Positions 874-16,155 of a stretch of DNA of 64,000 nt are shown piece by piece (within the stretch, counting starts at the first letter, position 1; the number at the start of each line of letters is the position of its first letter). The translations under genes were made by a program, and so were the position numbers. The stretch comes from an uncultured Rubrobacteraceae bacterium (GTDB lineage Bacteria > Actinomycetota > Rubrobacteria > Rubrobacterales > Rubrobacteraceae). Under the pieces are notes generated by a model. That model was not told where the DNA came from and did not search any database. It saw only the letters and a program-made list of their open reading frames with translations. The stretch spans positions 1 through 64,000 of the forward strand of contig CAWHLD010000020.1 in the NCBI GenBank assembly GCA_963830075.1. Direction: 5' to 3'.

Positions 874-2096
874 TGGCCCGTGGCTACCCATCCCGCCTCG
901 CCTGGACCCTGTGGGTACTCGCGCTCCTGCTGTTGCCCGGCGTGATTCTGCAGCTGTCTCTGAACTGGGTCGGGCCGACGGACTTCCCTTTCGCAATCGG
1001 GTTCATCGCGGTCCAGCTAGGTTGCGCGACCGCCGGCGCGATCATTAGCTCCAGACTTCCGGGGAACGCCGTTGGTTGGATCTTCCTGGCGATCGGAGTC
1101 CTGCTCGGGCTGTTGTTCGCCGCTGGCGCCTACGCCAAGCTGGCAGTCGACATGGGTTCTCCTCTGCCGGGTGGTTGGATCGCCGCCTGGATAGGCTCCT
1201 GGATCTTTATTCCGACGGCGTTCGGTCTTCCACTGTTCCTCCTCTTGCTCTTCCCGGATGGCCGCTTTATCTCGAAGCGCTGGCGGTTGGTGGGCTGGTT
1301 GCTAGGGCTCCTCGTGGTCTTCGCCGCCGCGTCGAAGGCCTTCGCGCCCGGACGGATTCCGCCCGGTATAGAGAACCCGCTAGCTCCTGGCGGCACAGCC
1401 GGGGACGTATTCGAAGTCCTGAGTCCCTTGACGGATGCCCTCGCTTTGCCCGCCTTCGCGCTGGCCGTCGCCGGACTCGCCGTCCGCTTGCGGAGATCCC
1501 GCGGCGTCGAACGCCAGCAACTCAAGTGGTTCACCTATTGCGCGGCTTTCGTGGGCACGGGCCTTGGCGCGGGGGTTTTTGTCTCCGGACCGGTCGGCGG
1601 TCTGGCGTTCCTCGTAGGGCTGCTGGCGCTGGCCGGGCTGCCGGTCGCGGCTGGCATCGCGATCCTGCGCTACCGCCTCTACGACATAGACGTGATCGTC
1701 AACCGCACCCTCGTCTACGGCTCGCTGACCCTCTCGCTGGTGGCGCTCTACATCGGCAGCGTGGTCTCCTTGCAGTACGTTTTCCGCACCCTGACCGGGG
1801 GAGGTTCGCAACTGGCTATCGTTGCTTCCACCCTGGTGATCGCGGCGCTTTTCAACTCCCTCAGGCGCCGCATCCAGGCCTTCATAGATAGGCGCTTCTA
1901 CCGCAGGAAGTATGACGCGAGAAAGACCCTCGAAGCCTTCTCCAGCAAACTACGAGAGGAGACGGACCTGGATGCCCTGAACGACGAACTGGTCAGGGTA
2001 ATTAGGGAGACGATGCAGCCGGCCCACGTCTCGTTGTGGCTGCGACCAGATCACGGTCCTAGGAGGGCCGGGGGTATCAGAGAACCGCGTGGCTAG
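870..2096 (+). CDS. Polytopic membrane protein, paralog 2, carrying the same conserved C-terminal module (RRRIQAFIDRRFYRRKYDA...ETMQPAHVSLWLR)
   Basis: 408-aa ORF with multiple TM-like hydrophobic stretches and C-terminal identity to the upstream ORF. Confidence 0.6.
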   Translation: MMARGYPSRLAWTLWVLALLLLPGVILQLSLNWVGPTDFPFAIGFIAVQLGCATAGAIISSRLPGNAVGWIFLAIGVLLGLLFAAGAYAKLAVDMGSPLPGGWIAAWIGSWIFIPTAFGLPLFLLLLFPDGRFISKRWRLVGWLLGLLVVFAAASKAFAPGRIPPGIENPLAPGGTAGDVFEVLSPLTDALALPAFALAVAGLAVRLRRSRGVERQQLKWFTYCAAFVGTGLGAGVFVSGPVGGLAFLVGLLALAGLPVAAGIAILRYRLYDIDVIVNRTLVYGSLTLSLVALYIGSVVSLQYVFRTLTGGGSQLAIVASTLVIAALFNSLRRRIQAFIDRRFYRRKYDARKTLEAFSSKLREETDLDALNDELVRVIRETMQPAHVSLWLRPDHGPRRAGGIREPRG

Positions 2097-2127: not shown

Positions 2128-2215
2128 CCCCAATCGTTGCGCTAAACACCACGCTCGGCGTTGTCCCAACTTGCGTGGGCCCACCTGAAGGCGGTGGGAG
2201 CAACCTGCACCCGGA
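2128..2215 (+). repeat. Dispersed repeat family 1, copy A. Core is GGCGTTGTCCCAACTTGCGTGGGCCCACCTGAAGGCGGT, followed by a long-loop hairpin at 2192-2253.
   Basis: Near-identical core also at about 4105, 7725, 15005 and 16120, all in the same orientation. Confidence 0.7.
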
Positions 2216-2299
2216 AGTGCCTCCTTAGGGTCCCAGGGTAGTTGCTCCCACCGACATTCGTACGCAAGGCGTCCGATTCCCTGTGTTCAACACTCACCG

Positions 2300-2775
2300 C
2301 TAAACGTACCGACGAACCAACCTCCGGTACCTGAAGTACTCGTCTCCGAACACTCCCTCCAGGGTGCGCTCTTCTCGAAGCACCTCCCGGTGGGTGATCC
2401 CTCCCACCAGCAGAAGCGATAACAACATCCACGAGTTTCGTGTGATGAGCGCAGCTCCAAGATACAGCAAGGTCCAGCCGACGTACATCGGGTTGCGGCT
2501 TCTGGCGTAAGGCCCCGTCGAAACGAGTGCGGAGGGTCGCTCCAGGTTGGCATCGGAGGCGGCCCGCACCGCCCAGGCCGACAAAGCGACTCCGGCTCCC
2601 ACTAGGGTCCATCCGACGCCGCTATGCAGTCACCTGCTCCCGGGCAGTCTCCACGGGCGAGCGAGGTACAGTGCCGTGCTGAAGAGGATCCCGGCCACAT
2701 GTGGCTCGGGAAGCGGGACGTTGTCCCACCTCCACGAGGTTGTGGTCTCGTCCTTCGGTTCGCCGCTTCCGACCA
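2300..2775 (-). pseudogene. Isoprenylcysteine carboxyl methyltransferase / phospholipid methyltransferase-family protein (ICMT/PEMT-like) interrupted by an in-frame TGA at 2630-2632
   Basis: C-terminal part has the family motif LVSTGPYARSRNPMYVGWTLLYLG...EERTLEGVFGDEYFRYRR. The upstream ORF (..HVAGILFSTALYLARPWRLPGSR*) is in the same frame, 30 nt away, separated only by the TGA. Confidence 0.55.
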
Positions 2776-2835
2776 TCGTCAAGTCCCTCTCGGTTATGGG
2801 AGTTCTCGACGAGAGCCTAGCAAAGGCACCTACAT

Positions 2836-2890
2836 TGCGTTGTCCTAACCGGCGCCGGCCGAGGCGGGGTCGGTCGCGGCAACGGCGCCC
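2836..2890 (+). repeat. REP-like imperfect palindrome family 3, copy a (GCGTTGTC...CGGCCGAGGCGGGGTCGGTCGCGGCAACGGCGC)
   Basis: Related copies at 5053-5108 and 13017-13062 with the same arms (GCCGTTGTCG...CGACAACAGCGC). Confidence 0.55.
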
Positions 2891-3047
2891 GCCAACGCCG
2901 CGTATCCGAGCGGTGAGGGCTGGAACGTCTCGTGGGGTGTCGCGAGGTTTGACTTGGTAACGAAGACGGTCTGAGGGCAAACAGCTTGCGCCGATTTTGT
3001 CGGCGCTCTATCTTAGGACACGAGAGAGACGTATAAGGGAGAGTGAC

Positions 3048-3911
3048 ATGACACCGCCGGCCGAGATATCAGGGCAGCATGAAACGGCACGCCAGCAAAG
3101 TAGGTCTGCTTGGGGCGCTGTAGCTTCCGGCTGGTACGCTCAGCGCGAAGACATCTGGAAGGCCTCTCGTCCAGTCACAGAGTGGATGGTCCGAAGGCTC
3201 GAACCGCAGCCTGGGGACATAGTGCTCGAACTAGGAGCTGGCCTGGCCGACACCGGGCTCATGGCGGCGCCTCTGGTGGGCCAATCGGGACGTGTCATAG
3301 TTACGGATTTCACTCCCGAGATGGTCGCTGCGGCTCGCCGAAGGACGGAGGAGCTGGGCGTGCGGAACGCGGAGTTTAGGGTACTTGATGCCGAGCGAAT
3401 GGACCTCAAGACGGATAGTGTCGACGGCGTCCTCTGCCGCTGGGCCTACATGCTGATGATCGATCCCTCTTCGGCTTTCGCGGAAACCCGGCGCGTGCTG
3501 CGTCCTGGGGGTCGGCTAGCTTTCTCGGTCTGGACCGCCCGCGAACGCAACCCGGCTCTCTCGCTCGTGGGCGGGGTACTGGAGTCACAGGGGCATATCC
3601 CGCCCCCCGATCCCAAGGCGCCCACCGCCTTCGCCATGGCCGACCCGGGGCGCATCCGAGAGCTCGTGGTGGGTGCCGGCTTCGCAGAGCCCGAGATAGA
3701 GGAGATTGCCTTCCGTTGGCCTTTCGCCAATCAGGATGCCTACTGGCGCTATCTGACCGAGACGGCCGCGTCCACCTCGCCCGTGCTGCGGGCCCTTTCT
3801 CCCGAAGCGCAGAAAGCGGTTCGGGAGCAGGTGCAGGAAGCGGCTCGACCGTACCGAGCTGGCGAGGGCTACGACTTCCCGGCTGTATGCCTTAACACCG
3901 TGACGCACTAA
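3048..3911 (+). CDS. Class I SAM-dependent methyltransferase
   Basis: Motif I VLELGAGLADTG, acidic loop VTDFTPEM, motif post-I/II pattern; 288 aa. Confidence 0.75.
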   Translation: MTPPAEISGQHETARQQSRSAWGAVASGWYAQREDIWKASRPVTEWMVRRLEPQPGDIVLELGAGLADTGLMAAPLVGQSGRVIVTDFTPEMVAAARRRTEELGVRNAEFRVLDAERMDLKTDSVDGVLCRWAYMLMIDPSSAFAETRRVLRPGGRLAFSVWTARERNPALSLVGGVLESQGHIPPPDPKAPTAFAMADPGRIRELVVGAGFAEPEIEEIAFRWPFANQDAYWRYLTETAASTSPVLRALSPEAQKAVREQVQEAARPYRAGEGYDFPAVCLNTVTH

Positions 3912-4089
3912 ACCTGAGCAACTCTACAGGTTCGTGTACCGTTGTCCGTAGGTAGTCCGGTTCGCGTTATCTCACCGCGATTCGCCTCGGCTCCGTCTCC
4001 TCGCGGTGCTTTCCTCCTGACGGAATGTCGCTGCTAGCGGCTAGAGTGCAATGTCCATTTGCACCTCGCCGTTTGCCTCGACCACTGCT

Positions 4090-4160
4090 CGGAACGTCAC
4101 GCAAGGCGTTATTCCAGCTTGCGTGGGCCACCTGAATGCGGTAGAAGCGACACTCCTTCG
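4090..4160 (+). repeat. Dispersed repeat family 1, copy B
   Basis: GGAACGTCACGCAAGGCGTTATTCCAGCTTGCGTGGGCCACCTGAATGCGGTAGAAGCGA. Confidence 0.65.
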
Positions 4161-4409
4161 CCCTCTCTCTGTGTAGCAACAAGACAGGTACAAAGGGGTG
4201 GCGCTACCCTCGGAGTTTTGTTACCTTGATTGCAAATCCCCCGGTGGGGAGCATAGGGAAAGGAGGTTGTGCTTTGGGGCGCCACTTTGACGGTTCTGGT
4301 TTTGGTGGCAGACATGGAACTGAGGCCCTCGAACCCTAAAGTACTCTCGGTCACGCGCTTCTGAGAAAAGACCACCAACCGCATGGTATATCCGCGAAAG
4401 GAGCGAGAA

Positions 4410-4892
4410 ATGACGACCGAAAATGAGGATCTGTACCTACTCGATGACCCGGTCGCGCAGGAGCTGCTGCACTCCACCAACCTCGCGCGGCTCGCCTACG
4501 TCTGGCGCGACGGGACGCCCCGCGTGGTGCCGATCTGGTTCCACTGGGACGGCGAGGAAATCGTGCTCGGCTCCCCTCCTAACGCCCCGAAGGTGGGCGT
4601 GCTGCCCGACAACTCGAAGGTTGCACTGACCATCGATCGCGAGGAGTTCCCCTACCACGCGCTGCTCGTTCGGGGGACCGCCCGCGTCGAGACGGTAGAG
4701 GGGGTCACCCCCGAGTACGAGGCTTGCGCCGAGCGGTACTTCGGTGAGGAGCAGGGACGCGAATGGGTGGAGGGGGTGCGGCAGATGTCCTCGCACATGA
4801 CCCGCATCAGCGTTAATCCGGAATGGGTGAGCATCCTGGACTTTGAGACGCGCTTTCCCAGCGCCATAGCGGAGGCGATGTCGGGTCAGTGA
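4410..4892 (+). CDS. Pyridoxamine 5'-phosphate oxidase (PPOX) family protein, probably F420/FMN-binding split-barrel
   Basis: LARLAYVWRDGTPRVVPIWFHWDGEEIVLGSP...VALTID pattern typical of the PPOX class; RBS AAGGAG before ATG 4410. Confidence 0.65.
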   Translation: MTTENEDLYLLDDPVAQELLHSTNLARLAYVWRDGTPRVVPIWFHWDGEEIVLGSPPNAPKVGVLPDNSKVALTIDREEFPYHALLVRGTARVETVEGVTPEYEACAERYFGEEQGREWVEGVRQMSSHMTRISVNPEWVSILDFETRFPSAIAEAMSGQ

Positions 4893-5052
4893 CCTGGGAG
4901 GGGGTCTCGTAGCTGTTAGGGCAGCGTGCATAAGGTTCGCTCGCCGGGTGTTGCGTGCCCGGGCGAACTTTGCCCGTCTCCCTTATGCCGCATCTACGTG
5001 ATGAACCTCGCCTCCATCACACCCTTAGCATCCAGACTGATCTTGAAGGCCA

Positions 5053-5108
5053 GCGCCGTTGTCGTAATCGGCGTCGACCGAGGACGGGTCGGTCGCGACA
5101 ACAGCGCT
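5053..5108 (+). repeat. REP-like palindrome family 3, copy b
   Basis: GCCGTTGTCGTAATCGGCGTCGACCGAGGACGGGTCGGTCGCGACAACAGCGC; arms are reverse complements. Confidence 0.55.
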
Positions 5109-5304
5109 CGCTAGCGTCTAGGTTGCGCATCGTAAGGGCAGCCGATGACGGGCATTCCGCTGATGGTCCCCTCACACCGTCTAGGTCTCTTGACTTTACG
5201 CCTCCGGCGACTATCATAGTTGTAGCAAATGTTGCTTTTGGCCTCGCCTCGCCGGCCGCGGTCCCGAAGGAACTGTTGGCCACAACCCAACCATAGGAGT
5301 AACT

Positions 5305-5516
5305 TGAGCGTTTACACCATCTACAGAGAAACCCAATCTTCGGACGATCCTGCAACGCGCGAAAGGCATTATGCAGGATGGGCCGCTAACCAGGACGACG
5401 CGGTACTTCGTGCCAACGAACTCTACGAGGGAAGAGATAGCATAGAAGCGGTATTGGTGATCGGTAACGGCCCGACGGAAGTCGAAGTTATCTACCGGGT
5501 AGACGGCAAAAATTAA
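5305..5516 (+). CDS. Small hypothetical protein (about 70 aa) inside a locally AT-rich island; TTG start after AGGAG
   Basis: ORF SVYTIYRETQSSDDPATRERHYAGWAANQDDAVLRANELYEGRDSIEAVLVIGNGPTEVEVIYRVDGKN. GC and third-position GC are far below neighbouring genes, so coding status is uncertain. Confidence 0.25.
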
Positions 5517-5927
5517 GGCATCGCGGGCCATCTGTCCGAGTCGCTGGGCTCAGCAACTGCTGTTAGGCTTTTGGGCCCCGTAAATAGGTCGGGCGGTGTA
5601 GCCGTCGAAATCTTTCAGCCGGGCGGAGACGTTCTCGCGGAGCCTCTCGCGTGGCATGTCCAGGACGTGCTCTTCGTAGAGGTGATCCTATAGGACGTTC
5701 ACCAGGCCGCTCTCGTCAGCGGCTGTAAGCATCGGGTCGCATGACGGACACTTCACGTTTATGGGATCGGGCATGCTGGCCACCTTTCCAGTCCTCCTCA
5801 TATTACCCGCCTGGGCCAGCCGCCATGGGCGTACTAACGGAAAGTTAGTGTAGGGGCGTTCGCCTCCAGCTACACGGTAGCAACAACGACCCCGTCTGCG
5901 CCTCCGCTCTGCGCATCTCAAGTGAAA

Positions 5928-6275
5928 CTACTGGATCTCGGCTCGCCCTTTGCTAGTAAGGCGAACGTCGTCGCCTATGACCGTCATGTTCTCCTCGCGT
6001 CCGATGATCCGGCTGGTGCTACCCGGCATCGCGCCCCCGGCCCGATAAGGTCGACCCGGATCGACGAAGCCTTCGTCCACGAGATGCCCGAACAGCTCGT
6101 AGGATCGGTCTTCGCTCAAGCCGATCTCGTCGCCTATGCGGGCGACCTCGGTGTCGGGGTCTACCTCGTCCCATCTGCCCTCGCGTTCGTGGATAGCCCT
6201 GAGCATGGCTTTTCGCTGATCGTCAGTAGTGTCATGGGGCTCCACACTGTCCTCCTCCGCTCGTCCCGCGACCAA
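5928..6275 (-). CDS. Hypothetical acidic protein (115 aa)
   Basis: Uninterrupted ORF with genome-typical codon bias; no recognisable motif. Confidence 0.35.
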   Translation of the reverse strand: MVAGRAEEDSVEPHDTTDDQRKAMLRAIHEREGRWDEVDPDTEVARIGDEIGLSEDRSYELFGHLVDEGFVDPGRPYRAGGAMPGSTSRIIGREENMTVIGDDVRLTSKGRAEIQ

Positions 6276-6505
6276 CTCTGAGGTTACCAGACCACACCAT
6301 GATCTACCCTGCCAGAGATGCCGCGCTGGCCCGCCCCTGCCTCCCCGAGAACCTCGTGCCTACTGCGCGCCGCGTGTGGTCAAGAAAGCCGCCGCTGCGC
6401 TGGTAGATCACCAAGGGGTCGTTGGGCGTTGAACGGGTCAACGCCTAACGAAGGCCAGGTCTTGGTGCTGGTCTCGAGGCTGGGTATCGCCGCCGAGAGC
6501 ACCTA

Positions 6506-6814
6506 CTACGCGAAACCGGTTATGGCGACGAGGGAGGACTTGGGCTCGTCGCCCCCGGGCCATGTGCTGCTCGGGCTATCCGGGCTCTCGCTCTCCTCGC
6601 CCGGGTGTTGGATCGTCAGGAACAGCGTCCTGCCGTCGGGGGTGAAGGCAGGTCCGGTCAGCTCAGCCTGCACGGGCCCGCTGGCAAACTGGAACACGTC
6701 TCCTCCGGAGACCCCGCCGTCTATACCGGATGGCATCACGAACGCCCCGTTGTTCTTGAAGGTGGTGTAGATGCCCGCGTTCACCTTGTCTGAGGAGATG
6801 TCGTTCCTCAGCAA
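6506..6814 (-). pseudogene. C-terminal remnant (about 100 aa) of a PhoX/DUF839-family phosphatase
   Basis: FTPDGRTLFLTIQHPGE...STWPGG matches the conserved C-terminal block of PhoX-type alkaline phosphatases. In-frame stop lies immediately upstream, so the roughly 450-aa N-terminal part is absent. Confidence 0.5.
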
Positions 6815-6881
6815 CCCTTCACAACACTGTGCAACAATCGCAAGCGTTCAACTCACGTGTGCATGGGTGCAGGCTGCGTCT

Positions 6882-6902
6882 GGATTCATCGCCGATTCAT
6901 CG
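6882..6902 (+). promoter_or_regulatory. Direct repeat GGATTCATCGC-CGATTCATCGT (two 11-nt units): candidate OmpR/PhoB-type response-regulator (PHO-box-like) site
   Basis: Same tandem 11-nt units (GAATTCATCGG-CGATTCATCAA) recur at 25038-25058, upstream of a second locus that contains a paralogous gene. Confidence 0.35.
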
Positions 6903-6980
6903 TCATGTTCTAGAAGAGTGGAGCAAGGACTGCATCGGCTAAAATTTGGAGCTTACTGTCCAGAGATAGAGAGGTGGCTT

Positions 6981-7613
6981 GTGACCTACCTAATCGTAGG
7001 CGGTTGTCTCGTGATCGTCATCTTGTTGGCTGGACTGTTCTGGGCTGGAGCACGAACAGGTACAGTAGTCCAAGACCAGAAGACATGGCTGGACTATGGA
7101 AACTTCTTCATTGTGGCTTCGGGTCTTGCGTCAGTTCTCATCGGCTTCCTCATCATTTTGCGGGTCGCTCCCCCTGCTGATGAGACTCAAGCGCTCGGTT
7201 TTCTAACCGCACTCTTCGGAGCGATCGCGGGTCTAGTCGGCACTTACTTTGGTGTTAAGCAAAGCGCCGATGCAAGAGAGGGGGCGGAAAAACTGGCAAC
7301 CCTCTCCAGCAGTGCCGGTACCACGGCGCCAACTATCACGATTGATCCCCCGACTGCGACGGTGGACGTAAATCAGCCCCATTTGGTGACCGCGACTGTG
7401 ACTAGCGTTGACGGATCGCCAACGGCAAATGAGGACGTGGCTTTTGCGGTCACCGATGGACCAGACATGAATGTTACGGGTACGGAAACGACCGACGGGT
7501 TCGGTCGAGCCGTCTTCACGTTCACCAACAACGGCGGTGCGGGAACCGATACGGTCGAGGCAACTGCTATCGGGGGAAAAGGCACAGCCACAGTCAAATT
7601 CGAAGCACCTTGA
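6981..7613 (+). CDS. Small membrane protein (2 TM) with C-terminal bacterial Ig-like (Big_2-type) domain
   Basis: TM block LDYGNFFIVASGLASVLIGFLIIL...LFGAIAGLVGTYFGVKQSADA is paralogous to ORF 26821-27294. C-terminus TATVTSVDGSP...VEATAIGGKGTATV resembles Big_2. RBS GAGAGGTGG before GTG. Confidence 0.5.
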   Translation: MTYLIVGGCLVIVILLAGLFWAGARTGTVVQDQKTWLDYGNFFIVASGLASVLIGFLIILRVAPPADETQALGFLTALFGAIAGLVGTYFGVKQSADAREGAEKLATLSSSAGTTAPTITIDPPTATVDVNQPHLVTATVTSVDGSPTANEDVAFAVTDGPDMNVTGTETTDGFGRAVFTFTNNGGAGTDTVEATAIGGKGTATVKFEAP

Positions 7614-7667
7614 GATCAGCGTCCCTCGTCCCCGAGAGCCCCGTTTTCAGGACTGCTCGAGCGCTAT

Positions 7668-7775
7668 CTCCATTACCGACTCGTTGTGTGTCCCGACCAC
7701 CGCGCGAAACGCCACGCGAGACGTTGTCCCAACGTGCGTGGGCCCAGACGGAGGCGGTAGAAGCGATCCCCGCCG
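7668..7775 (+). repeat. Dispersed repeat family 1, copy C (CTCCATTACCGACTCG...GAAACGCCACGCGAGACGTTGTCCCAACGTGCGTGGGCCCAGACGGAGGCGGTAGAAGCGA)
   Basis: Shares both the 5' CTCCATTACCGAYTCG block with copy D and the core with copies A and B. Confidence 0.7.
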
Positions 7776-7900
7776 GCGCCTCCGCCGCACGAGAAGGGAA
7801 GCCGACGACATTTACGGCAAAGGCGGTCCCCGCTCTATGGTAAGCACTACGGGCAAGGGCGAGATTCGAAGTTCTCCGAACGTGTTAATCTTCTAGCAGC

Positions 7901-8161
7901 CTAGCTCGACAACTCCGCCGCCATCAGCGTCAGGCCGCCGTCGACGACGAACGAGGCGCCGGGGACTTGGTCGGCCCGCGCTTGCCTAATTGCACGATCC
8001 ACGAAGCGGCCTACCGAGGTCGCCACCCTGGCCCCTTCCCCGGAACCCACCTCGCCGTTGAAGGTGTAAAGGTGGGTGAAGACGTTGTGGTTGGCCGCGG
8101 TCCCGCTCTCGAAGCATATCCACCGGCTGCGGCTCTCGCTGTCGCCCATGTCCGCCACCAA
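7901..8161 (-). pseudogene. C-terminal remnant of a short-chain dehydrogenase/reductase (SDR)
   Basis: Ends with ..VGRFVDRA...PGASFVVDGGLTLMAA, typical of an SDR C-terminus. The N-terminal 40 aa are unrelated and the Rossmann TGxxxGxG region is absent. Confidence 0.4.
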
Positions 8162-8217
8162 TCCGGGTCAGCCGGGGCGAGTGGATCGTCCAGATTGGCC
8201 CACCTCTGTCATTCGAG

Positions 8218-8540
8218 TCACTCGGTAACGAAATGGTCGCTGGCGTGTATGTCGACTTGTCGCAGCCGCCCGGCGCCGGAGTTAACGAACTTGTGCGCCA
8301 CCCCGCCCGGCATCACAACGACCTGGCCGCCCGTCGCCTCGATAACGTCGTCCCCGGCGGCGAAGGTCGCGGAGCCCTCCTGCACCACAAAGACCTCCTC
8401 GTAAGGGTGCCTGTGCAGCCTCGGGCCGCCACCCGGCGGCGCGTCTACGACGATGACCGAGACGCTTGCGCCGAGGAGGTGCCCCTGGAACTCGCCGACC
8501 TCTTCCCCGCGCGCCGGGTCAGCTATGCCGAGGACGCGCG
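8218..8540 (-). CDS. Cupin-domain protein
   Basis: HRHPYEEVFVVQEGSATF...GQVVVMPGGVAHKFVN two-motif cupin signature. Start is uncertain; it overlaps the end of the upstream hydrolase. Confidence 0.6.
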
Positions 8541-9377
8541 TCACGCCCCGCCCCCCGCCGACGGCTCCGCCCCCGGCGTGGGCGCGTCGAGGAACGGCGG
8601 GACCATCGCCAGCAGCCACTCGGCGCGGTCCAGGACCCCGCTGCCCGGCGGGATAAAGTGGGCGGTCCCGGGGAGCACCACGAGTCGGGACTCGGGGAGG
8701 CCGGCGAGGTCTCCCATGGCCCCGCCCCCGAGCAACCGGAACAGCTCGACGGCGTGTTCGAGGCGGATGGCGTCGGCGTCGCCGACGACGATCATGGTTG
8801 GCGCCTCAATCTCCCGGATGTCTTCGTCTGGCCAGGAGAAGGGCGTCATGTCGAGACGCTTCAGTTTCTCGACCAGCGTCGGAAAGTCCCCGGGGTTGGG
8901 CGCGACCTCTTTGTACGCCGCCTCGAAGGGGGACCCGGCGAACATCTCGGGCGTGATGGACGGGACCATCTCGTGCAGCTCGGGCTGCATGCCGTCGCTC
9001 GTGTAGGAGGCCGAGGCGATCACCAGACTACGCACCGAGCCCGGGTGGCGGATGGCGAGCTGGAGGGCGACCCCGCCGCCCATGCTGTAGCCGAAGGCGT
9101 CGGCCTCGTAGATCCCTAGGTGCCGCAGCAGGGCCGCCACGTCGTCAGCCATCCCCTCATAGGTGATAGGGCGGTCGATATCGGCGGTGCGCCCGTGCCC
9201 CTGCATCTCGGGGACGATCACCCGCCTGCTCTCGGCCAGGCCGGGCAAGATCGGCCCCATGGCGTCAACCGTCATGTAGGCGCCGTGCAGCAGGACCAGC
9301 GGCCGGCCTTCGCCGTGGATCTCGTAGTACATCCTGAGACCGTTCACCTCAGCGTAGTCTCCCTTGGTACCGTTCAT
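8541..9377 (-). CDS. Alpha/beta-fold hydrolase
   Basis: LVLLHGAYMT..., nucleophile elbow GYSMGGGVA, C-terminal His region; start at MNGTKGDYAEVNGLRMYYE. Confidence 0.7.
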   Translation of the reverse strand: MNGTKGDYAEVNGLRMYYEIHGEGRPLVLLHGAYMTVDAMGPILPGLAESRRVIVPEMQGHGRTADIDRPITYEGMADDVAALLRHLGIYEADAFGYSMGGGVALQLAIRHPGSVRSLVIASASYTSDGMQPELHEMVPSITPEMFAGSPFEAAYKEVAPNPGDFPTLVEKLKRLDMTPFSWPDEDIREIEAPTMIVVGDADAIRLEHAVELFRLLGGGAMGDLAGLPESRLVVLPGTAHFIPPGSGVLDRAEWLLAMVPPFLDAPTPGAEPSAGGGA

Positions 9378-9570
9378 CCGTTCCCCTTTCTGGTCACCGC
9401 AGGCGCGACGGGGCTCTCGCTCGTGGCCACCACGGTGTCGCTCACGTTGGCCCTCCTTCGTTGGCCTTTCCCGATCGTCTGGCAGCAGCATACGGTACCT
9501 GGCGGAACATGCACAGGGGAGGTTTGTGCCTACCGAGGTAGGTACGGGTCACGGACCGAGGGCCTTTGTT

Positions 9571-9608
9571 CTGCCGCACTAAGGAAGGTAGTTGCGGCGG
9601 AATGAATC
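9571..9608 (+). repeat. Hairpin repeat family 2, copy 1 (CTGCCGCACTAAGGAAGGTAGTTGCGGCGGAATGAATC)
   Basis: GTTGCGGCGGAATG(A/C)ATC block shared with copies at 11849, 12754, 13208. Confidence 0.6.
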
Positions 9609-9625
9609 AGCGACTGCGCTGCCCA

Positions 9626-10483
9626 TCAAGTTGCGGGTGGCACCATCGCATAGCGCGACGGCTCCAGCTCCATCTGGGCTACTTCGATGAACTGCCTCTT
9701 CCGACTGCCAATCCTGCCCTTATGGCCTATGTGCGGGTCCTTGTAGAAGTTGCCGCTGCCGATGAGCCAGAACAGCTTGTCGACGTTGTAGGGAGTGACG
9801 CCGACGTTGCGTGCCACCCTAGCCACTGCCTTGAACACCTCGTAGTCGCTGGTCCCCCAAGGGCAGAGCCCAAGTCCCTGGAAGATGTCCTTGACGTGAA
9901 CGTCTGGTTTGGAGAAGTTATCGTAGCCTAGCTCCTTTAGGAAGTCACAGGCCAAGGCAAACCCGATCCCCTCTATTTCTTGTGCCACAAGCAGAGGTAG
10001 CGCCGGCCTTGCCCGCTCGTCCTCGTCGAAGAAGTCGACCCACCCGTAGAAGTCTTCGGCAGAGGAGAATCGCGACAGGAACCTGGCACCGGAGAGAATA
10101 GACCTACAGTACCTAGGCCAGATGCTCCTCGGCGTGCTAGGCACGCTGCCCCTGGGTTTGAGTTGGTCCACTATGTCATCTAGGACGCCTTCCCAACCGG
10201 AGTGGTACTTCTCCAATACGCGCAAAGGATCGAAGTCGCACAGCACAGGACCGAGCCTATACACCCCACCGATCGAGCCGCCGATGACACCCGCGTTCAT
10301 GTTGCCGCTCTGCGCCGACTCCAGCATGCGCTCGTAGAGGCCCGCTAAGCTTTCAGGTCGCGGTCTCGAGAGGTGCAGATATTTCTCGATTAGCTCAGGT
10401 GTGATGCCACGTTCTGCTCCTGAGCGCAAGAGAAATTCTTTGGCCAGGGCGTAGGCAGCCCTATCAAGACCCTGTTGACTCAC
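9626..10483 (-). CDS. Hypothetical protein with possible HhH-GPD-like (DNA glycosylase superfamily) helix-hairpin-helix + Asp motif
   Basis: GIGFALACDFLKELGYDNFSKPDVHVKDIF resembles an HhH followed by a G/P-rich loop and Asp; the rest is unassignable. Confidence 0.3.
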   Translation of the reverse strand: MSQQGLDRAAYALAKEFLLRSGAERGITPELIEKYLHLSRPRPESLAGLYERMLESAQSGNMNAGVIGGSIGGVYRLGPVLCDFDPLRVLEKYHSGWEGVLDDIVDQLKPRGSVPSTPRSIWPRYCRSILSGARFLSRFSSAEDFYGWVDFFDEDERARPALPLLVAQEIEGIGFALACDFLKELGYDNFSKPDVHVKDIFQGLGLCPWGTSDYEVFKAVARVARNVGVTPYNVDKLFWLIGSGNFYKDPHIGHKGRIGSRKRQFIEVAQMELEPSRYAMVPPAT

Positions 10484-10536
10484 ATGCGATCACCTAATCC
10501 TGGAGGCATCCTGCCGATGCGCCTCGGAGCCCGACG

Positions 10537-11595
10537 CTAGGCCTCGCCGCTCAGATGTGGCCCGAGGAGCGAGAGGTCGGCCGGTCCCAGCCGGTCTGAG
10601 GCGGTCTTGGCCTGGTGCCAGAAGGGGTAGATCAGCGGCGGGGCGCTCACCTCGTCCAGGCGTCTGCGCTCCGCTTCGGTGAGCTCCAGCTCGGCGGCCC
10701 GGAGGTTGTCGGCCAGCTGTTCGTCGGTACGAGCGCCTATTATGACCGAGGCCACGCCTGCTCGGCCGAGAAGCCACGCGAGGGCCACCTGCGCCGCCGA
10801 TACGCCACGATCCTCCGCGATCTCGACCAGCACGTCTACGGTGTCGTAGAGCTTGTCGGTGTCATAAACGGGAGGCTCGTCCCAGCCCTCCACGTGCCGT
10901 CCCTCCTGGGCATCCCTGTCGCGCCGGTACTTGCCCGACAGCAGGCCACCGGCCAACGGGCTCCACACAAGGATAGGGCACTCCTGATCCACAGCGAGTG
11001 GCACTAACTCGTACTCGGCCTCTCTTGCCTGCAACGTGTAGTGGATCTGCTGGCTGACGTAGCGCTGCAGACCGAGCCTATCGGAGACCCCTAGCGCCTT
11101 CATCAGCTGCCAGCCGGAGTAGTTGGACGATCCCACGTAGCGTACCTTGCCGCTCTTCACGAGGGTGTCCAGCGCCTCCAGGGTCTCCTCCAGCGGGGTG
11201 AGTCCGTCCCATTCGTGGACCTGGTAGAGGTCGATGTGGTCGGTGCCTAGCCTCCTGAGGCTCTCCTCGCACTGGCGGATTATGTGGTGTCGGGAGAGAC
11301 CGGTGTCGTTGGGCCCGTCTCCTACTGACATGCGGACCTTCGTCGCGAGGAGTAGGTCGTCTCGGTGGCCCGCGATCGCCTCCCCCAGTATCTCCTCTGA
11401 CTCGCCCCCAGAGTAGATGTTTGCGGTATCGAAGAGGTTGACCCCCGCCTCAAGGCACATGTCCACCTGCCGCCTTGCTCCGGCAACGTCCGTCGCGCCG
11501 ACCTTGCTAAAGCCCCCCTGCCCCCCGAAGGTCATCGTGCCGAGGGTCAGGGCAGAAACGAACAGACCCGAGCGTCCGAGGCGGCGATACTCCAT
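10537..11595 (-). CDS. Aldo/keto reductase
   Basis: MEYRRLGRSGLFVSALTLGTMTFG, DTANIYSGGESEEILG, HIDLYQVHEWD, VRYVGSSNYSGWQ. Confidence 0.85.
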   Translation of the reverse strand: MEYRRLGRSGLFVSALTLGTMTFGGQGGFSKVGATDVAGARRQVDMCLEAGVNLFDTANIYSGGESEEILGEAIAGHRDDLLLATKVRMSVGDGPNDTGLSRHHIIRQCEESLRRLGTDHIDLYQVHEWDGLTPLEETLEALDTLVKSGKVRYVGSSNYSGWQLMKALGVSDRLGLQRYVSQQIHYTLQAREAEYELVPLAVDQECPILVWSPLAGGLLSGKYRRDRDAQEGRHVEGWDEPPVYDTDKLYDTVDVLVEIAEDRGVSAAQVALAWLLGRAGVASVIIGARTDEQLADNLRAAELELTEAERRRLDEVSAPPLIYPFWHQAKTASDRLGPADLSLLGPHLSGEA

Positions 11596-11848
11596 GGGAT
11601 CCTCCCTACATAATTGAACTATCGAGGTGCATGCTAGCCTAGCACGATGAGGACTCCATTGTGGTGTTGTGGTCGGCTGTCAGAGCCTCCCACCGCTTTC
11701 CCCATGGTGACCCGAATCCGAGCATCATTCAAAGCCACCTTGAAGCCCCTTTAAGTAGCGAGGATCATCCCGAGGGAGGGAAACACCCGCTACCGGCTCT
11801 TGAAGCCATCGAAACGACTCCTACACCTCGTCGCTAACCACTATTGAC

Positions 11849-11892
11849 TATTTCCGCCGCCCCTAGGAAGGGGGTTGCGGCGGAATGAATCG
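11849..11892 (+). repeat. Hairpin repeat family 2, copy 2 (CTATTTCCGCCGCCCCTAGGAAGGGGGTTGCGGCGGAATGAATC)
   Basis: Stem TTCCGCCGC / GCGGCGGAA around a 7-nt loop. Confidence 0.65.
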
Positions 11893-11959
11893 GTCGAGGT
11901 TAGCTGTTCCTGAGCGCAAGAGGCTGGGCCTCGTCTAAACCGGAGAACCCATGATGCGT

Positions 11960-12211
11960 CTATGCAGCGATGTCTTCCCTACCATCCTGACGCTCTCGCC
12001 GCATCCTCCCTAGCGCCTCGGCCAGCGCCTTACTCCGGAGGCCATGTTTCTCCTGAGTAAGCTCGCCGATGGCAAAGTATGCCTCCTGCTCGCGGGCGCA
12101 CGGCCCGCAGAAGGCCACGCCAAGGATCTCCACCTCTGCTCGACGTAGGCAAAGCTGCTCCATCTTACTACGCACCTGACAAGGTCCCAGCTTCGTCGTC
12201 GCCTCGTTCAA
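11960..12211 (-). CDS. Small hypothetical protein (CxxC-containing)
   Basis: ORF directly downstream of HU on the same strand; ..VAFCGPCAREQE..; weak support. Confidence 0.25.
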   Translation of the reverse strand: MNEATTKLGPCQVRSKMEQLCLRRAEVEILGVAFCGPCAREQEAYFAIGELTQEKHGLRSKALAEALGRMRRERQDGREDIAA

Positions 12212-12231
12212 GTGACCCCCTGCCTGGGCTC

Positions 12232-12501
12232 CTAGACCGCCTCTTTGAGGGCGTTGCCCGCGCTGAAGGCTGGAACCTTCTGGGCCGCGATCTTCATCTT
12301 CTGGCCGGTCTGGGGGTTCCTGCCCTCCCTGGCCTTGCGCTCCCGCACGGAGAACTTGCCGAAGCCCGTGATCTGCACCTCCTCGCCGGCCTTGAGCGCC
12401 TCGGTCACGACCTCCTCGAAGGCCGCGAAGTACCTCTGCACTTCCCCGGTGGGCACATCAGTCTCCTCTGCGATCCTCTCGATTAGTTCCTTCTTCTTCA
12501 T
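12232..12501 (-). CDS. hup: HU-family nucleoid-associated DNA-binding protein
   Basis: MKKKELIERIAEETDV...FEEVVTEALKAGEEVQITGFGKFSVRERKAREGRNPQTGQKMKIAAQKVPAFSAG is the canonical HU/IHF fold sequence. Confidence 0.85.
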   Translation of the reverse strand: MKKKELIERIAEETDVPTGEVQRYFAAFEEVVTEALKAGEEVQITGFGKFSVRERKAREGRNPQTGQKMKIAAQKVPAFSAGNALKEAV

Positions 12502-12753
12502 GGTCACCCTTTCTGTGGTCGCACCCGGCCCATTGGCGGGCCTGCTTGGGTTGCTTATCTTCCTGTTTATACGGGAGGCGGAACTCCTTGCCATCCCCTC
12601 GCTCCCGGTGGGTTTGGCGGGCCGGATGTTGTTGGGGCGTGCTGCGGGACACGTACCACATTTGGTGTAGCCGTCTCGGGAAGGTGAACGGGTAGAGCGG
12701 TCCCATCGCTCCTAAAGACTGTTGCTCGCGATGCTCGATGCTAATCGGCCCTA

Positions 12754-12797
12754 CTATTTCCGCCACTCCTAAGAGAGGGAGTTGCGGCGGAATGCAT
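12754..12797 (+). repeat. Hairpin repeat family 2, copy 3 (CTATTTCCGCCACTCCTAAGAGAGGGAGTTGCGGCGGAATGCATC)
   Basis: Same architecture as copy 2. Confidence 0.65.
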
Positions 12798-13016
12798 CCA
12801 TCAAGGGTCAAGGAGACCTTGGCCGCTTCAACAGCGGAGAGGGTATCCGCAACCAGGATGTGTTGGTCTGTTACGCGGCGCATTTCACGTACGACGTTCA
12901 CGAGCGGGAGGTGGGTCACATCGTAGGTCCCGTACTCCGACCGGCTCGGTGGTAGGCTGAGAAGGCACTCCCGTCTCAGTTACTCCGCTCGCTCCGATCA
13001 CGGCACGGAAGGTTAC

Positions 13017-13062
13017 GCCCGCCGTTGTCGCAATCGGCATCGGCCGAGGCGGAGCGATCCAT
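13017..13062 (+). repeat. REP-like family 3, copy c (partial)
   Basis: GCCGTTGTCGCAATCGGCATCGGCCGAGGCGGAGCGATCC. Confidence 0.4.
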
Positions 13063-13207
13063 GCAGGCGCTACATACGAACTTCGGAGAAACTTTCGTTT
13101 CCACGCACTCAGGTGAATAGAGGAAAGGATTTTGCCGAACGTTCTACTTGCACTTGAGGTACTGATAGAGGGCGCTTCATCTTGTAACATTAAGTTTTAT
13201 GTGCAAG

Positions 13208-13233
13208 GGTAGATTAGCGGCGGAATACCCCGC
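13208..13233 (+). repeat. Hairpin repeat family 2, degenerate copy 4
   Basis: GGTAGATTAGCGGCGGAATACCCCGCC. Confidence 0.3.
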
Positions 13234-13647
13234 CATCCTGGATAAGGGCAAACTCGCCGCGAGGCGGGGGCGCAAAGCCTAAGGACCTCGCCTAGCGCAG
13301 GAGGTAGCCGGGCTGCCGGAAGGAAACCATCGTGATCTTCTCACTCACATAAGTAACCAACACGGTACCCAGATACCGGTAGCCCGGTGACATTGCCGCT
13401 CCTCGAAGCCTAGACCCACAGACATACACATGGGGGGAAACCATGAATCTATCTGCTGTTTTGCACCTTGCCGTCCGGGCAAGAAAGAACACACTTGCTT
13501 GCTTGGTGACGGGAGTTGAAGCACCCTTTCACACGTTAGACGTCACTAAGAGGGCTTCTCTCTCGGTTTCGGAGGGGTGGCACGCTTGGGGGCCGGGAGG
13601 ATCTCGATTGCGCCGCGAACGATCGGGAACTGTTGAGGGGGGCTACG

Positions 13648-14766
13648 ATGCGTGAGATCCGAATCGTCTTTGCGGGCGCCGCGCTGGCGGTATTTACGGT
13701 CTGTGTCGCTACGATCTCGGCGGGCGCCCAGGTGACGGGCGACGGGTCATCGGCTCCAGAAGATGGCACGCAGCAGGTTTCGCAGGGGACGGTCACCGGG
13801 GCTTCCCAATCCAAGCTAGACGCGGTCAGCCGCGACGTGGCCGAAGAGGAGCGGCTTCCCGACTACTCACAGGTCGTAGGCGACACCTCGGACAGGCGCT
13901 TCGCCGCTCCTGGATGGCACAAGGGTGCGACCGACGTACTTGCCCACGGCGGCTCCTTCGCCTTCTCGGACGCCGACACAAACGACGCGAAGGATCTGCG
14001 CTTCAGGCTGAAGGTTCCAACCTCTAACGACTACACCCTCTACGCGTGGTGGCCCGACACCGAGGGGAACAGCACGGTCGCCCGCTTCGGCGTGAGCACC
14101 TCCTCGGGGACGAAGTGGACGACGGTCGACCAGACCAGAGACGGCGGCTACTGGGTCCAGATCGGCACCTACGACATGAGGGCCGGCGACTACGACGCCG
14201 TGCGCCTTTCTCCCGGGGACGGCTCGGGCCGGGTTGTCGCCGATGCCGTGGCCCTCGTCAGGGGCGTTGCATCACCGCCGCCCGACGACCTCGCCCCGGT
14301 TGATGGCGGACCGCTGAGCGCCGGCGTCTCCCTGGACATCGACGAGGCCACCTACAGCGCCGCGAGACGCTCGGGTCGCGTCAAAGGGATCCGGCTGGTC
14401 CGCCGTGGCAGAGGTCATATAGGCACCCGCTACCGTCTCTCCCCGCCGGCCCCTTGCATAGCGTACAGGGTGGAAGATTGCTCCTGCTTCACCAAGTTCA
14501 CCCTCAGGCGCTTCAAGTACATACCCGACTCCCCAGTCCGGCAGTTCCAAAACGGGCACAGGGTCAGGTCGAGGTCCAATCTGAAGCGCGGGGATCTGGT
14601 CTTCTTCAAGGAAAGAGGTCGGAATCGTCCCATAACCCACGTGGGAATCTTCAGCGGCAACGGCCGCATCCTCCACGCCTCCGCATACTGGGGCAAGGTC
14701 GTCGAGAAGAAGATGAAGTACATCAGGGGCTACTATGGCGCCAGGCGGATACTCCCGCGCATCTAG
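13648..14766 (+). CDS. Secreted NlpC/P60-family peptidoglycan endopeptidase with N-terminal signal peptide and an N-terminal domain of unknown function
   Basis: Signal peptide MREIRIVFAGAALAVFTVCVATISAGAQV. C-terminus has NlpC/P60 Cys-His-His pattern (IAYRVEDCSCFTKF...ITHVGIF...ILHAS). RBS GAGGGGGG. Confidence 0.7.
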   Translation: MREIRIVFAGAALAVFTVCVATISAGAQVTGDGSSAPEDGTQQVSQGTVTGASQSKLDAVSRDVAEEERLPDYSQVVGDTSDRRFAAPGWHKGATDVLAHGGSFAFSDADTNDAKDLRFRLKVPTSNDYTLYAWWPDTEGNSTVARFGVSTSSGTKWTTVDQTRDGGYWVQIGTYDMRAGDYDAVRLSPGDGSGRVVADAVALVRGVASPPPDDLAPVDGGPLSAGVSLDIDEATYSAARRSGRVKGIRLVRRGRGHIGTRYRLSPPAPCIAYRVEDCSCFTKFTLRRFKYIPDSPVRQFQNGHRVRSRSNLKRGDLVFFKERGRNRPITHVGIFSGNGRILHASAYWGKVVEKKMKYIRGYYGARRILPRI

Positions 14767-14952
14767 CGGCGAGCCTTTCCCGACCCGCGCACGCTTCCCT
14801 TCTGGCCAGCACTGGAGCGCGCATGGGCTTCGGGGTTTCCTTCGAACGCCGGATATGTGGACCACTCGGGTTCTTCGCGGCCTTCCGGAAAGCCAGGGAG
14901 ACGCACAATCCCGACGATACGAGCGCTAGGAGTTAGTGGCTAGAGCGTGACC

Positions 14953-15035
14953 TCCATTACCGATTCGCCGTGTAACCCGATCATCGCCCGGAACGCCAGA
15001 CTCGGCGTTGTCCCAACTAGCGTGGGCCCATTCTC
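14953..15035 (+). repeat. Dispersed repeat family 1, copy D; it abuts and overlaps the start of the methyltransferase fragment
   Basis: CTCCATTACCGATTCG...GGAACGCCAGACTCGGCGTTGTCCCAACTAGCGTGGGCCCA. Confidence 0.7.
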
Positions 15036-15430
15036 ACGAAACACTGCTGTGGGCTAGCAAGGGACACGGATCCCGCCACACCTTCAACTACGACCTTATA
15101 AACAGCAGAAACCCGGACGCCCAGGTCTCCTCCGTCTGGCGCATCCCCGTCGTGCCCATGAGGGAGAAGCTCCACGGCCGCCACCCCACCCAGAAACCCC
15201 TGCGCCTCGTCCGTCGCACCATCCTGGCCTCGACGGGGGAAGGCGACCTCGTCTTCGACCCTTTCTGCGGGTCTGGGACGACGGGGGTGGCGGCCAAGGA
15301 ACTGGGGCGCTTTTTTGTGGGGGCTGAGATGGAGGAGGAGTATGCGGAGCTCGCGGCGCGCAGGATAAAGGCTGCGGTGCGCGGGGGAGCATTAGGAGCG
15401 CTCCCCGACCTTAGCCCCCAGGATGGCTAG
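15008..15430 (+). pseudogene. C-terminal half of a CcrM-like (beta-class, N6_N4_Mtase family) N6-adenine DNA methyltransferase. The N-terminal DPPY half is missing.
   Basis: AHSHETLLWASKGHGSRHTFNYDLI...HPTQKPLRLVRRTILASTGEGDLVFDPFCGSGTTGVAAKELGRFFVGAEMEEEYAELAARRIKAA aligns to CcrM ..[58 protein letters not shown]. No DPPY motif is found upstream. Confidence 0.65.
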
Positions 15431-15473
15431 ATGCTGGGTGCTCCGTCCCTGTCCTCTTGGCGTGTCTCGCCTA

Positions 15474-15929
15474 CTATCCTGGGTTCCTTATCTCGCAGTT
15501 GCTGCGGATGGTGTCATCGCCCCTGTCAAAGAAGACTTTGTCATTCGCGCCTGGTCCGCAATTGACGGTGTCCCCGACGCCGTTCCCTTCCCGCACCCTT
15601 ATGATGTCGTTGCCTTCATCACCCCAGATGAAGTCGAGGTCGGGAGAGTTTTCGTTGTCCGTAATGGAATCGTTGCCCTCATCACCATAGATATTGTCGC
15701 TGACGCCGCCACCGGTAATGATGTCGTTTCCTTCCATGCCGACTATGTTGTGGAGGTTGTCGTCACCGGCAGTAAGCGTGTCGGCGGCCCTGGTTCCCAC
15801 GCAATCGGGAGCAAGTGTTCCACCTGCTCCAACAGCCCCTAGGCAAGTCCTGTTGACCGCGAGAGCCACCCCGCCCGCCATCGCCAAAACCACCACGGCT
15901 ACCACCAGTAGGAGCGCCACCCGTCTCAT
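15474..15929 (-). CDS. Secreted calcium-binding protein with RTX/hemolysin-type GGxGxD repeats
   Basis: Signal peptide MRRVALLLVVAVVVLAMAGGVALA; repeats GMEGNDIITGGGVSDNIYGDEGNDSI...GDEGNDIIRV. Confidence 0.6.
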   Translation of the reverse strand: MRRVALLLVVAVVVLAMAGGVALAVNRTCLGAVGAGGTLAPDCVGTRAADTLTAGDDNLHNIVGMEGNDIITGGGVSDNIYGDEGNDSITDNENSPDLDFIWGDEGNDIIRVREGNGVGDTVNCGPGANDKVFFDRGDDTIRSNCEIRNPG

Positions 15930-16067
15930 CCTCGTTCCCTTCCTTTGGAGCGCGGCACAGTCCCCGCTCTTTGAATGCAACGAATACACTATAGTTACGA
16001 ACCGTACCGGACGTATCACCCAAATAGACGATCTTTCCAGTCGTTTTGGCGGCTCCTTTTCGCGCCT

Positions 16068-16155
16068 GGAACGTCACGCAAAGGGCTACCTGGCAATCCG
16101 CCCCGATAACTGCGTGAAACGCCAGGCTCAGCTTTGTCCTGGCTTGCGCAAATAG
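16068..16155 (+). repeat. Dispersed repeat family 1, copy E (two partial units in tandem)
   Basis: GGAACGTCACGCAAAGGGCTACC...GAAACGCCAGGCTCAGCTTTGTCCTGGCTTGCGCA. Confidence 0.55.

Follow-up and report, generated by a model that had tools for sequence, protein, structure and literature searches.

Why does a short repeat recur in one direction only over 14 kb of a bacterial chromosome, and why does one of its copies run straight into a broken DNA methyltransferase gene? The question is raised by a 64,000-nt stretch of contig CAWHLD010000020.1 from an uncultured Rubrobacteraceae bacterium (the whole stretch is called the window in the following). The first-pass annotation of this DNA described a five-copy repeat family and proposed for it either an internal methyltransferase segment that had been spread around, or a mobile repeat or recombination hotspot that had truncated the methyltransferase. 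Comparison with related loci bears out the second of these in part. The repeat is very probably the attachment site of large serine recombinase (LSR) elements that insert at a single point of one methyltransferase gene in Rubrobacteraceae, and its copies in the window would be the joints of an array of cassettes that carry no recombinase of their own.

The repeat and its junctions with a split methyltransferase gene

When up to three mismatches are allowed, the 25-nt core GGCGTTGTCCCAACTTGCGTGGGCC has four occurrences on the + strand, at 2157, 4105, 7720 and 15004, where none was expected by chance (100 dinucleotide-preserving shuffles), and a repeat search returned a 92-nt family at the same four positions. 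An iterated profile search brought the total to eight copies in the window, every one on the + strand, and found no further copy in the other 48 kb. All five copies of the first-pass annotation are real, one of them, copy E, being genuine but decayed (nhmmer E = 5e-8 with the first profile, 2e-14 with the iterated profile); their number was too low, as the profile searches recovered three further copies, G, H and F, which are diverged, have a variant core and had been missed. The common orientation over 14 kb holds for all eight. The extent of about 60–100 nt does not, since the aligned unit is longer, about 115 nt when counted from a minus-strand stop codon, and consists of a left arm of about 65–70 nt, the core and a right arm.

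Copy A occupies 2093–2205 (core 2159–2181, right arm 2182–2205), copy B 4041–4150 (core 4107–4129, with a 1-nt deletion, GGG-CCACC), copy C 7647–7766 (core 7722–7744) and copy D 14940–15031 (core 15006–15028). The left edge of these four units is CTA (TCA in C), a stop codon on the minus strand. Read on that strand, the left arms end ..LLPPPSGGPTQVGTTPSVVFSATIGADGEANLRVAL in A (stop at 2093–2095), ..PTQAGITPCVTFRAVVEANGEVQMDIAL in B (stop at 4041–4043), ..GSLLPPPSGPTHVGTTSRVAFRAVVGTHNESVMEIALEQS in C (stop at 7647–7649) and ..GPTLVGTTPSLAFRAMIGLHGESVMEVTL in D (stop at 14940–14942). The CTAG at 2093–2096 is at once the stop of the + strand gene 873–2096 and the opposite-strand stop of the copy A tail. 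The right arm in copies A, B and C is CACCTGAAGGCGGTAGAAGCGA; copy D has the 3' part of the methyltransferase gene instead. Copy E (16057–16148, ..KLSLAFHAVIGADCQVALCVTF..) is a decayed unit. The three diverged copies lie at 2777–2868 (G, core CGTTGTCCTAACCGGCGCCGGCCGAGGCGG, E = 7e-4 with the iterated profile), 4989–5087 (H, minus strand ..TTTALAFKISLDAKGVMEARFIT*, E = 1e-5, with a homologous copy in the related locus L008) and 12951–13049 (F, minus strand ..PPRPMPIATTAGVTFRAVIGASG.., E = 3e-8). They have a type-2 variant core, GTTGTCSYAAYCGGCRYCGRCCGAGG, which is 6 nt shorter than type 1, and these units also encode a tail-like peptide on the minus strand.

As a dispersed intergenic repeat of about 100 nt, the family could be a miniature inverted-repeat transposable element (MITE), a repetitive extragenic palindrome or an insertion-sequence end spread by a transposase. 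However, the repeat search found no terminal inverted repeats at the units, target-site duplications were not seen at the unit ends, and no hairpin stood out when four copies were folded as single-stranded DNA on both strands (z-scores of −0.73 to +0.74). The strictly uniform orientation and the location of the junctions at one fixed nucleotide of one gene, detailed below, argue in the same direction, and we regard spread by a transposase as very improbable. Conservative recombination into a single polar site gives one orientation only, and this accounts for the uniformity over 14 kb.

The core of copy D runs directly into a fragment of a CcrM-like beta-class methyltransferase gene (15027–15430, + strand, H-S-H-E-T-L-L-W to the stop codon), which matches positions 95–221 of N6_N4_Mtase (PF01555, E = 2.6e-31) and contains the FxGxG motif, without the DPPY half of the protein. 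The intact target is represented by a protein of 271 residues (P0038), which, like its gene in L032, reads ..ACCGCCTTTACCCATGCACATGAA..; intact homologues of 271 residues reading ..PPPNALHTAFTHAHETLLWASKG.. carry the empty site, attB. Against the intact L032 gene, the DNA homology of copy D begins only at CCCAT (15027), with 78% nucleotide identity from nt 413 on. The insertion point is fixed, between the methyltransferase codons ..TAFTH and AHETLLW. These comparisons show that copy D is attR, with the crossover inside CCCAT at 15027–15031, and that the break in the methyltransferase gene of this genome separates the DPPY half from the half with FxGxG.

The same break was met in homologous proteins. 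Among the best 120 matches of a search with the C-terminal half, 57 had the tested attR motif (..SQLAWAHAHE..), at least 20 had variants of it and 31 were intact across the junction; many homologues of the copy D fragment, about 140 residues long, start ..SQLAWAHAHETLLW. The best 120 matches to the N-terminal half included 17 intact proteins and at least 26 of attL type. The latter are products of about 145 residues ending ..TAFTHLKAVE or ..TAFTQVKAT, that is, the 5' half read into the right arm of the repeat, and a further class ends ..TAFTHAQATRNN, the read-through of an attL that bears the LSR. A degenerate core-pattern scan of one genome per species had yielded 31 loci. Of these, 26 belong to Rubrobacter, Rubrobacteraceae or other Actinomycetota metagenome-assembled genomes, and several contigs bear multiple co-oriented copies. 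In the window and these first 31 loci, tblastn found no N-terminal half of the methyltransferase.

A second, very common break point lies about 75 nt upstream in the same gene, between ..KLIN and VIRSxYKxxPPP, and was seen in roughly 35 of the best 120 N-terminal matches (for example P0188, P0182, P0234, P0233 and P0004). One locus (L042, 11361–11444) retains only residues 116–143, between both break points. The second break point points to a different inserted element, which would make the methyltransferase gene a double hot spot.

The first of the origins proposed earlier, duplication and dispersal of a segment of the methyltransferase gene, would account for the + frame of copy D that is open into the methyltransferase, for a BLASTP alignment that stretches into the left arm with 98% query coverage, and for the presence of ACCGCCTTCA and CCCACGC, shared with the methyltransferase, in the reverse complement of the unit found in copies A, B and C. 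Yet blastn of the intact gene against copies A, B and C and against the left arm of copy D, up to CCCAT, gave no significant similarity, the + frame contains stops in A, B and D, and the left arm is coding on the opposite strand. Moreover, methyltransferase sequence adjoins only 6 of 37 copies (pattern-selected, from Rubrobacteraceae contigs and the window), and the short inverted matches are the expectation for half-sites that are bound by one recombinase. Gene debris is therefore a highly unlikely source of the family. The core of copy D does run straight into the CcrM-like fragment, as the first-pass annotation had it, but the frame that they share is incidental, the DNA homology starting only at CCCAT. 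Rather than being confined to methyltransferase paralogues or randomly oriented, the copies lie mostly outside such paralogues and are uniform in orientation within every locus, which favours a real element.

If the 5' and 3' halves of the methyltransferase gene are called a and b, and the left and right arms of the repeat c and d, four types of junction are present. The a-b junction (attB) is that of the intact methyltransferase in L032. The c-d junction (attP type) is found in window copies A, B and C and in L035, a-d (attL) in L033, L034, L037 and L038, and c-b (attR) in window copy D and in L006, L009, L017, L019 and L025. The sequence common to all four types is CCCA(C); it follows a near-invariant core, CGTTGTCCCAACTTGCGTGGGCC, of about 25 bp, and the crossover falls inside it. 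A low-entropy block of about 50 bp extends across the site, which is in part a product of how the pattern search was built. The junctions place the crossover dinucleotide only within CCCAC, and dyad symmetry did not narrow this further. Each core variant has its own palindrome of 6–10 nt, located 2–3 nt to the left of the inferred crossover.

We attribute copies A, B, C and the decayed copy E to c-d joints between head-to-tail units in the same target, and the variants G, H and F are probably c-d joints as well. Recombination between these sites would be catalysed by the LSR. From the second proposal of the first-pass annotation, the recombination site that split the methyltransferase survives; it is to be read as the attachment site of an LSR, however, and not as a MITE.

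The left arm and the large serine recombinase

Translated on the minus strand, arm c gives the consensus ..LLPPSGG-PTQVGTT-PSxAFRAVIGxxGExxMExAL* without internal stops, and in the 37 pattern-selected copies it ends with Leu-stop (CTC or CTT followed by TAG, TAA or TGA). At several well-aligned codons of the arm (V, F, R, A and I) the second position is the most conserved and the third far more variable. As aligned, this pattern is a coding signature and not a DNA or RNA motif. A start codon is not conserved, and in-frame stops occur just upstream in many copies; the peptide would therefore be the C-terminal end of a larger protein.

A clear coding signature on the minus strand, together with an open reading frame (ORF) of 54 residues with an ATG start in copy C, would also be compatible with small protein genes of about 40–55 residues that are conserved for their own sake, and a conserved repeat of this kind might alternatively be a structured RNA. 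The lack of a conserved start and the stops upstream speak against such genes, as does the fact that conservation starts in the middle of the peptide and that the peptide continues LSR ORFs (see below). For the RNA, a scan of the whole window with Rfam 15 at the gathering score gave no match at any copy, and there was no fold signal. We consider it very unlikely that the arm is conserved as a gene or RNA in its own right.

A profile of the tail peptide, compared with 1.84 billion cluster representatives, gave 166 matches, nearly all of them short ORFs, and in most of them the match was at or near the C-terminus. Two of the matching proteins, P0386 (from L035) and P0372, are C-terminal LSR fragments that run in one frame ..SLEVSWGTHCHEWLGRG-PTQVGTTPGVVFRAIVGPETRVEIAVAL, and in these and in P0433 the sequence WLGRG is followed by PTQVGTTPGVVFRAIVGPETRVEIAVAL within a single ORF. 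By this comparison, arm c is the reverse complement of the last ~22 LSR codons and the stop codon. Arm d, about 22 bp long, is homologous to the LSR codons ..(K/E)WL(G/S)(R/P)G, and ORFs across the c-d joint run about 30 residues beyond WLGRG. In an AlphaFold2 model of the LSR C-terminal region the tail forms a beta-hairpin with moderate confidence (pLDDT 63–69), which resembles the preceding hairpin LRVVCHKDRSLEVTWG. The model supports the hairpin shape of the tail; it proves nothing on its function.

Full-length LSR homologues have 574–588 residues with the Pfam domains Resolvase, Recombinase and Zn_ribbon_recom. Most of these, and many of the partial ones, end ..SLEVTWGxDCxxWLGRG*, exactly at the junction. 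In L037, L038 and L043 an intact LSR gene (555–583 residues) converges on, and overlaps, the methyltransferase 5' half, giving attL. The same arrangement with a decayed LSR was found in L034 and L042; in L034 the LSR is on the opposite strand, with its 3' end entering the junction. The integrated LSR gene stops at a TGA that is formed by the strand opposite the methyltransferase codons TTC ACC. On the element side, the LSR loci contain HTH_3 repressors, a Prim-Pol/PolA or NrS1-like primase-polymerase, or an Eco57I/MmeI-like restriction-modification gene. The closest solved relative of the LSR is the N-terminal domain of the TP901-1 integrase (E = 6e-18). With 79 bits against the NCBIfam model of CcrB, for which the cut-off is 900, it is not a Ccr orthologue. 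Defence genes flank the insertion site on both sides: in L038 (12214–13080) a Mrr-type restriction gene adjoins the methyltransferase on the host side, and the LSR element of L043 (1–4800) carries Eco57I/MmeI-like restriction-modification genes.

Taken together, the junctions and the LSR loci give the following picture. The attP site is part of the LSR gene, near its 3' end, and integration into the methyltransferase gene (a-b) yields attL (a-d) and attR (c-b). At attL the LSR gene is shortened, with a new stop supplied by the antisense of the methyltransferase. After excision, the circle would be expected to encode an LSR that has its tail of about 30 residues back. The units between the joints may have arisen by accretion combined with loss of the recombinase, in the manner of the cis-mobilisable elements (CIMEs) discussed below, and may still be excisable or movable by an LSR that acts from the attL end or in trans. 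In this genome, the LSR and the methyltransferase 5' half would be located to the left of window position 1; at the left end, this 5' half is predicted to run up to ..ACCGCCTTCACCCA and to continue into arm d.

Cassette arrays, their cargo and neighbouring features

About 59 copies were collected with the iterated profile in Rubrobacteraceae and related actinobacterial contigs (pattern-scan loci, context look-ups and the window). Adjacent copies are co-oriented in 30 out of 30 pairs, and the median distance between them is 1.8 kb. In the window, the units measure about 0.7–5 kb and have no recombinase among their tested ORFs. They carry two paralogous membrane proteins, an S-adenosylmethionine (SAM) methyltransferase, a PNPOx-family protein, a Big_1 protein, an alpha/beta hydrolase, an aldo-keto reductase, HU, and an NlpC/P60 gene behind a c-di-GMP riboswitch; the cargo of other arrays comprises NmrA, SDR, sulfatase, PhoX, GH15 and PASTA proteins. 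Cargo genes are found in both orientations.

The blocks between the joints recur in different contexts. Window positions 2852–3994 are found again in L009, followed there by attR, and in L035 and L040 beside an LSR remnant; copy G forms the left edge of this SAM-methyltransferase block, which is the cargo shared with the same three loci. Copy E and an aldo-keto reductase block (17731–18823) have their counterparts immediately behind intact c-d copies, in L002 and L014, respectively, and the position of copy E corresponds to an intact c-d copy in L002 that precedes the same DUF2277 block. In the 37 copies, where flanks are unrelated, the similarity of arm d ends abruptly after about 22 bp, which speaks for site-specific joining or for a half-site that has been kept, and against random deletion. 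We also note that the left edge of the shared cargo block falls within the type-2 core.

Co-oriented repeats between small gene units bring to mind the attC sites of a chromosomal integron with a tyrosine IntI. In the present case no single-strand fold was obtained, no RYYYAAC/GTTRRRY pair was seen on inspection, and the associated recombinase is a serine enzyme, whereas no tyrosine recombinase is among the tested ORFs of the window. The cargo genes, moreover, lie in both orientations, and one of them has its own riboswitch. An integron in the classical sense is thus extremely improbable.

Several observations weigh against an LSR-driven array. The window contains neither an LSR nor attL: among the Pfam-tested ORFs between 1 and 30 kb there was no recombinase, serine or tyrosine, and no LSR remnant was detected beside copies A, B and C; the recombinase fragments of L034, compared by tblastn with the window and an initial set of loci, matched L034 alone. 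Look-ups with the window's own proteins (870–2096, 873–2096 and P0001), aimed at the DNA left of position 1, gave no record. The evidence that ties the array to the LSR comes from homologous loci in other genomes and metagenomes. Neither an intact LSR gene with its tail nor a free circular form was found among the LSR homologues or in the viral-contig and metagenome scans; among the viral contigs the core pattern had 0 matches, and the metagenome scan for the LSR-type attP, GCGTGGGCCCACGNCCAAGCCA, returned only 3 loci, all remnants. Nor does the array end at copy D, which is followed by copy E, by blocks that resemble cassettes and by another methyltransferase remnant. Textbook LSRs pair attP with attB only, and a multiplication of c-d joints is hard to explain on that basis. 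Dyad symmetry is seen in attL (ACCGCCTTCA-CCCACC-TGAAGGCGGT) and attR (GCGTGGG-CCCACGC), which are near-palindromes (L033, L037, window copy D), and not in the attP-type and attB sites. No partner site was identified for the type-2 variants. Finally, the invariance of the core is in part a matter of construction, the loci having been retrieved with an exact pattern.

In a rival reading, the attachment sites are the same, yet the array is a fossil left by complete LSR elements that integrated repeatedly and then decayed; no part of it would be mobilised today, and the conservation of the tail would be purely inherited. LSR remnants of varied length beside the copies (171 residues in L035 and L040, without the N-terminal domain in L034, frameshifted in L042) would be consistent with such a fossil, as would the decayed or frameshifted state of copies E and B and of several tails elsewhere, and the failure to find a circular form in the viral-contig and metagenome scans. 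Random deletions, in contrast, would not share an end base, as arm d does at about 22 bp in 37 copies, and the same cargo block is found beside different junction types in different genomes. We regard a wholly inert array as possible, though somewhat improbable. In the opposite direction, the LSR could serve an integron-like platform for gene capture, with cassettes shuffled in and out and the attachment site acting as an interchangeable last 'exon' of the recombinase; the tail-less integrated form and the circle form with its beta-hairpin tail of about 30 residues would then help to set the direction of the reaction, and the methyltransferase gene in which the array was seeded would become whole again once the entire array is excised. 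This extension of the LSR reading is speculative and, in our estimate, rather unlikely.

A few further features of the window should be mentioned. The tandem paralogous membrane-protein genes at 1–873 and 873–2096 (+ strand, about 72% nucleotide identity, C-terminal halves) make up the leftmost visible unit, and related sequence is present in L003, L035 and L040. Just to the right of copy C, a short ORF with high GC at the third codon position (7901–8161, minus strand) is probably a truncated SDR gene: the flank 7766–7962, which includes the 3' end of the ORF, shares homology with sequence flanking an SDR gene that follows a copy in L025. A hairpin repeat, TTCCGCCGC..GCGGCGGAATGAATC, is present in three copies (9569–9608, 11852–11891 and 12759–12798), which sit just beyond the ends of minus-strand genes and look like shared terminators. 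The only Rfam match in the window, a c-di-GMP-I riboswitch (RF01051, 54.8 bits, 13237–13320, + strand), lies outside all copies and upstream of a gene for a Golvesin_C and NlpC/P60 protein (13633–14766); both are within the unit between copies F and D, so that this cassette brings a regulator with it.

To the right of the split methyltransferase, a second, frameshifted remnant of a methyltransferase 3' end of about 65 nt (17629–17693, + strand, SRAAAMELGRF / GALFVGAEMEEAYA) is located 2.2 kb from the first fragment and directly before the aldo-keto reductase block, which in L014 comes after a c-d copy. Two aldo-keto reductase paralogues, both of 352 residues and on the minus strand, are encoded in the window, one within the unit from copy C to copy F (10537–11595), the other to the right of the second methyltransferase remnant (17738–18796).

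Significance and comparison with known systems

With the LSR assignment, a repeat that had no explanation becomes part of a defined recombination system, with a new LSR family, an attP of about 50 bp and a natural attB in a conserved gene. All four site types are available for testing and potentially for genome engineering. The arrays point to gene accretion at the scale of cassettes in Actinomycetota, a phylum in which, to our knowledge, classical integrons are rare or absent. The recombinase ORF would be remodelled by its own reaction, and since the methyltransferase is split, methylation may switch with the state of insertion. Should the cassettes prove immobile, the arrays would still be a well-resolved example of tandem island accretion.

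In the literature, we found no description of the system in Rubrobacter or of 'integron-like' arrays of a serine recombinase. As in an integron, small gene units that each close with a recombination site are lined up in a single direction; none of the other integron features, a tyrosine IntI, a folded attC, promoterless co-oriented ORFs and an attI beside intI, was found here.

Elements that interrupt a gene and are excised by an LSR include SPbeta in spsM and skin in sigK of Bacillus subtilis, the comK prophage of Listeria, and the fdxN element of Anabaena with XisF. They share with the present system the interrupted coding gene and the exact uninterrupted allele in related genomes. These elements are single, large and prophage-like, and we know of no array of recombinase-less cassettes among them. 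An attP within the recombinase ORF is known from SSV1 of the archaeal fuselloviruses, where integration partitions the gene; the enzyme there is a tyrosine integrase and the target a tRNA gene. In the system described here, the attP is likewise inside the recombinase ORF, but the enzyme is a serine recombinase that loses only its last ~30 residues, and the truncated gene takes its stop codon from the host.

The closest parallels to the array are found among genomic islands. The ssrA islands of Dehalococcoides, 15 of which have no integration module (PMC3146451), and the staphylococcal cassette chromosome (SCC, SCCmec) likewise have the LSR gene on the reverse strand directly beside attL, and tandem islands in one single-copy target that are bounded by direct repeats and in many cases devoid of an integration module. 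They differ in that the islands use the 3' end of ssrA or rlmH and leave the gene intact, whereas in Rubrobacteraceae the methyltransferase is split in the middle of its ORF; that their repeat is 20 bp long, compared with about 115 nt including recombinase codons; and that their units are much larger than those described here (median 1.8 kb). With regard to SCC in particular, the recombinase of the present system is no Ccr orthologue.

The CIMEs and the accretion described for the ICESt1 family of Streptococcus thermophilus (PMC5704250) resemble the arrays in that attachment sites are kept, integration genes are lost and elements accumulate beside an incoming element at the same site. Mobilisation in cis has been demonstrated for these CIMEs; in the present case it is a prediction, with indirect evidence in the recurrence of one cargo block beside different junctions. 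Those systems depend on tyrosine integrases, use the 3' ends of genes and comprise two or three elements per array, unlike the arrays of Rubrobacteraceae. Thus, the system differs from those known in its split target gene, in an attP site inside the recombinase ORF, in a long and partly coding repeat, and in units of the size of cassettes.

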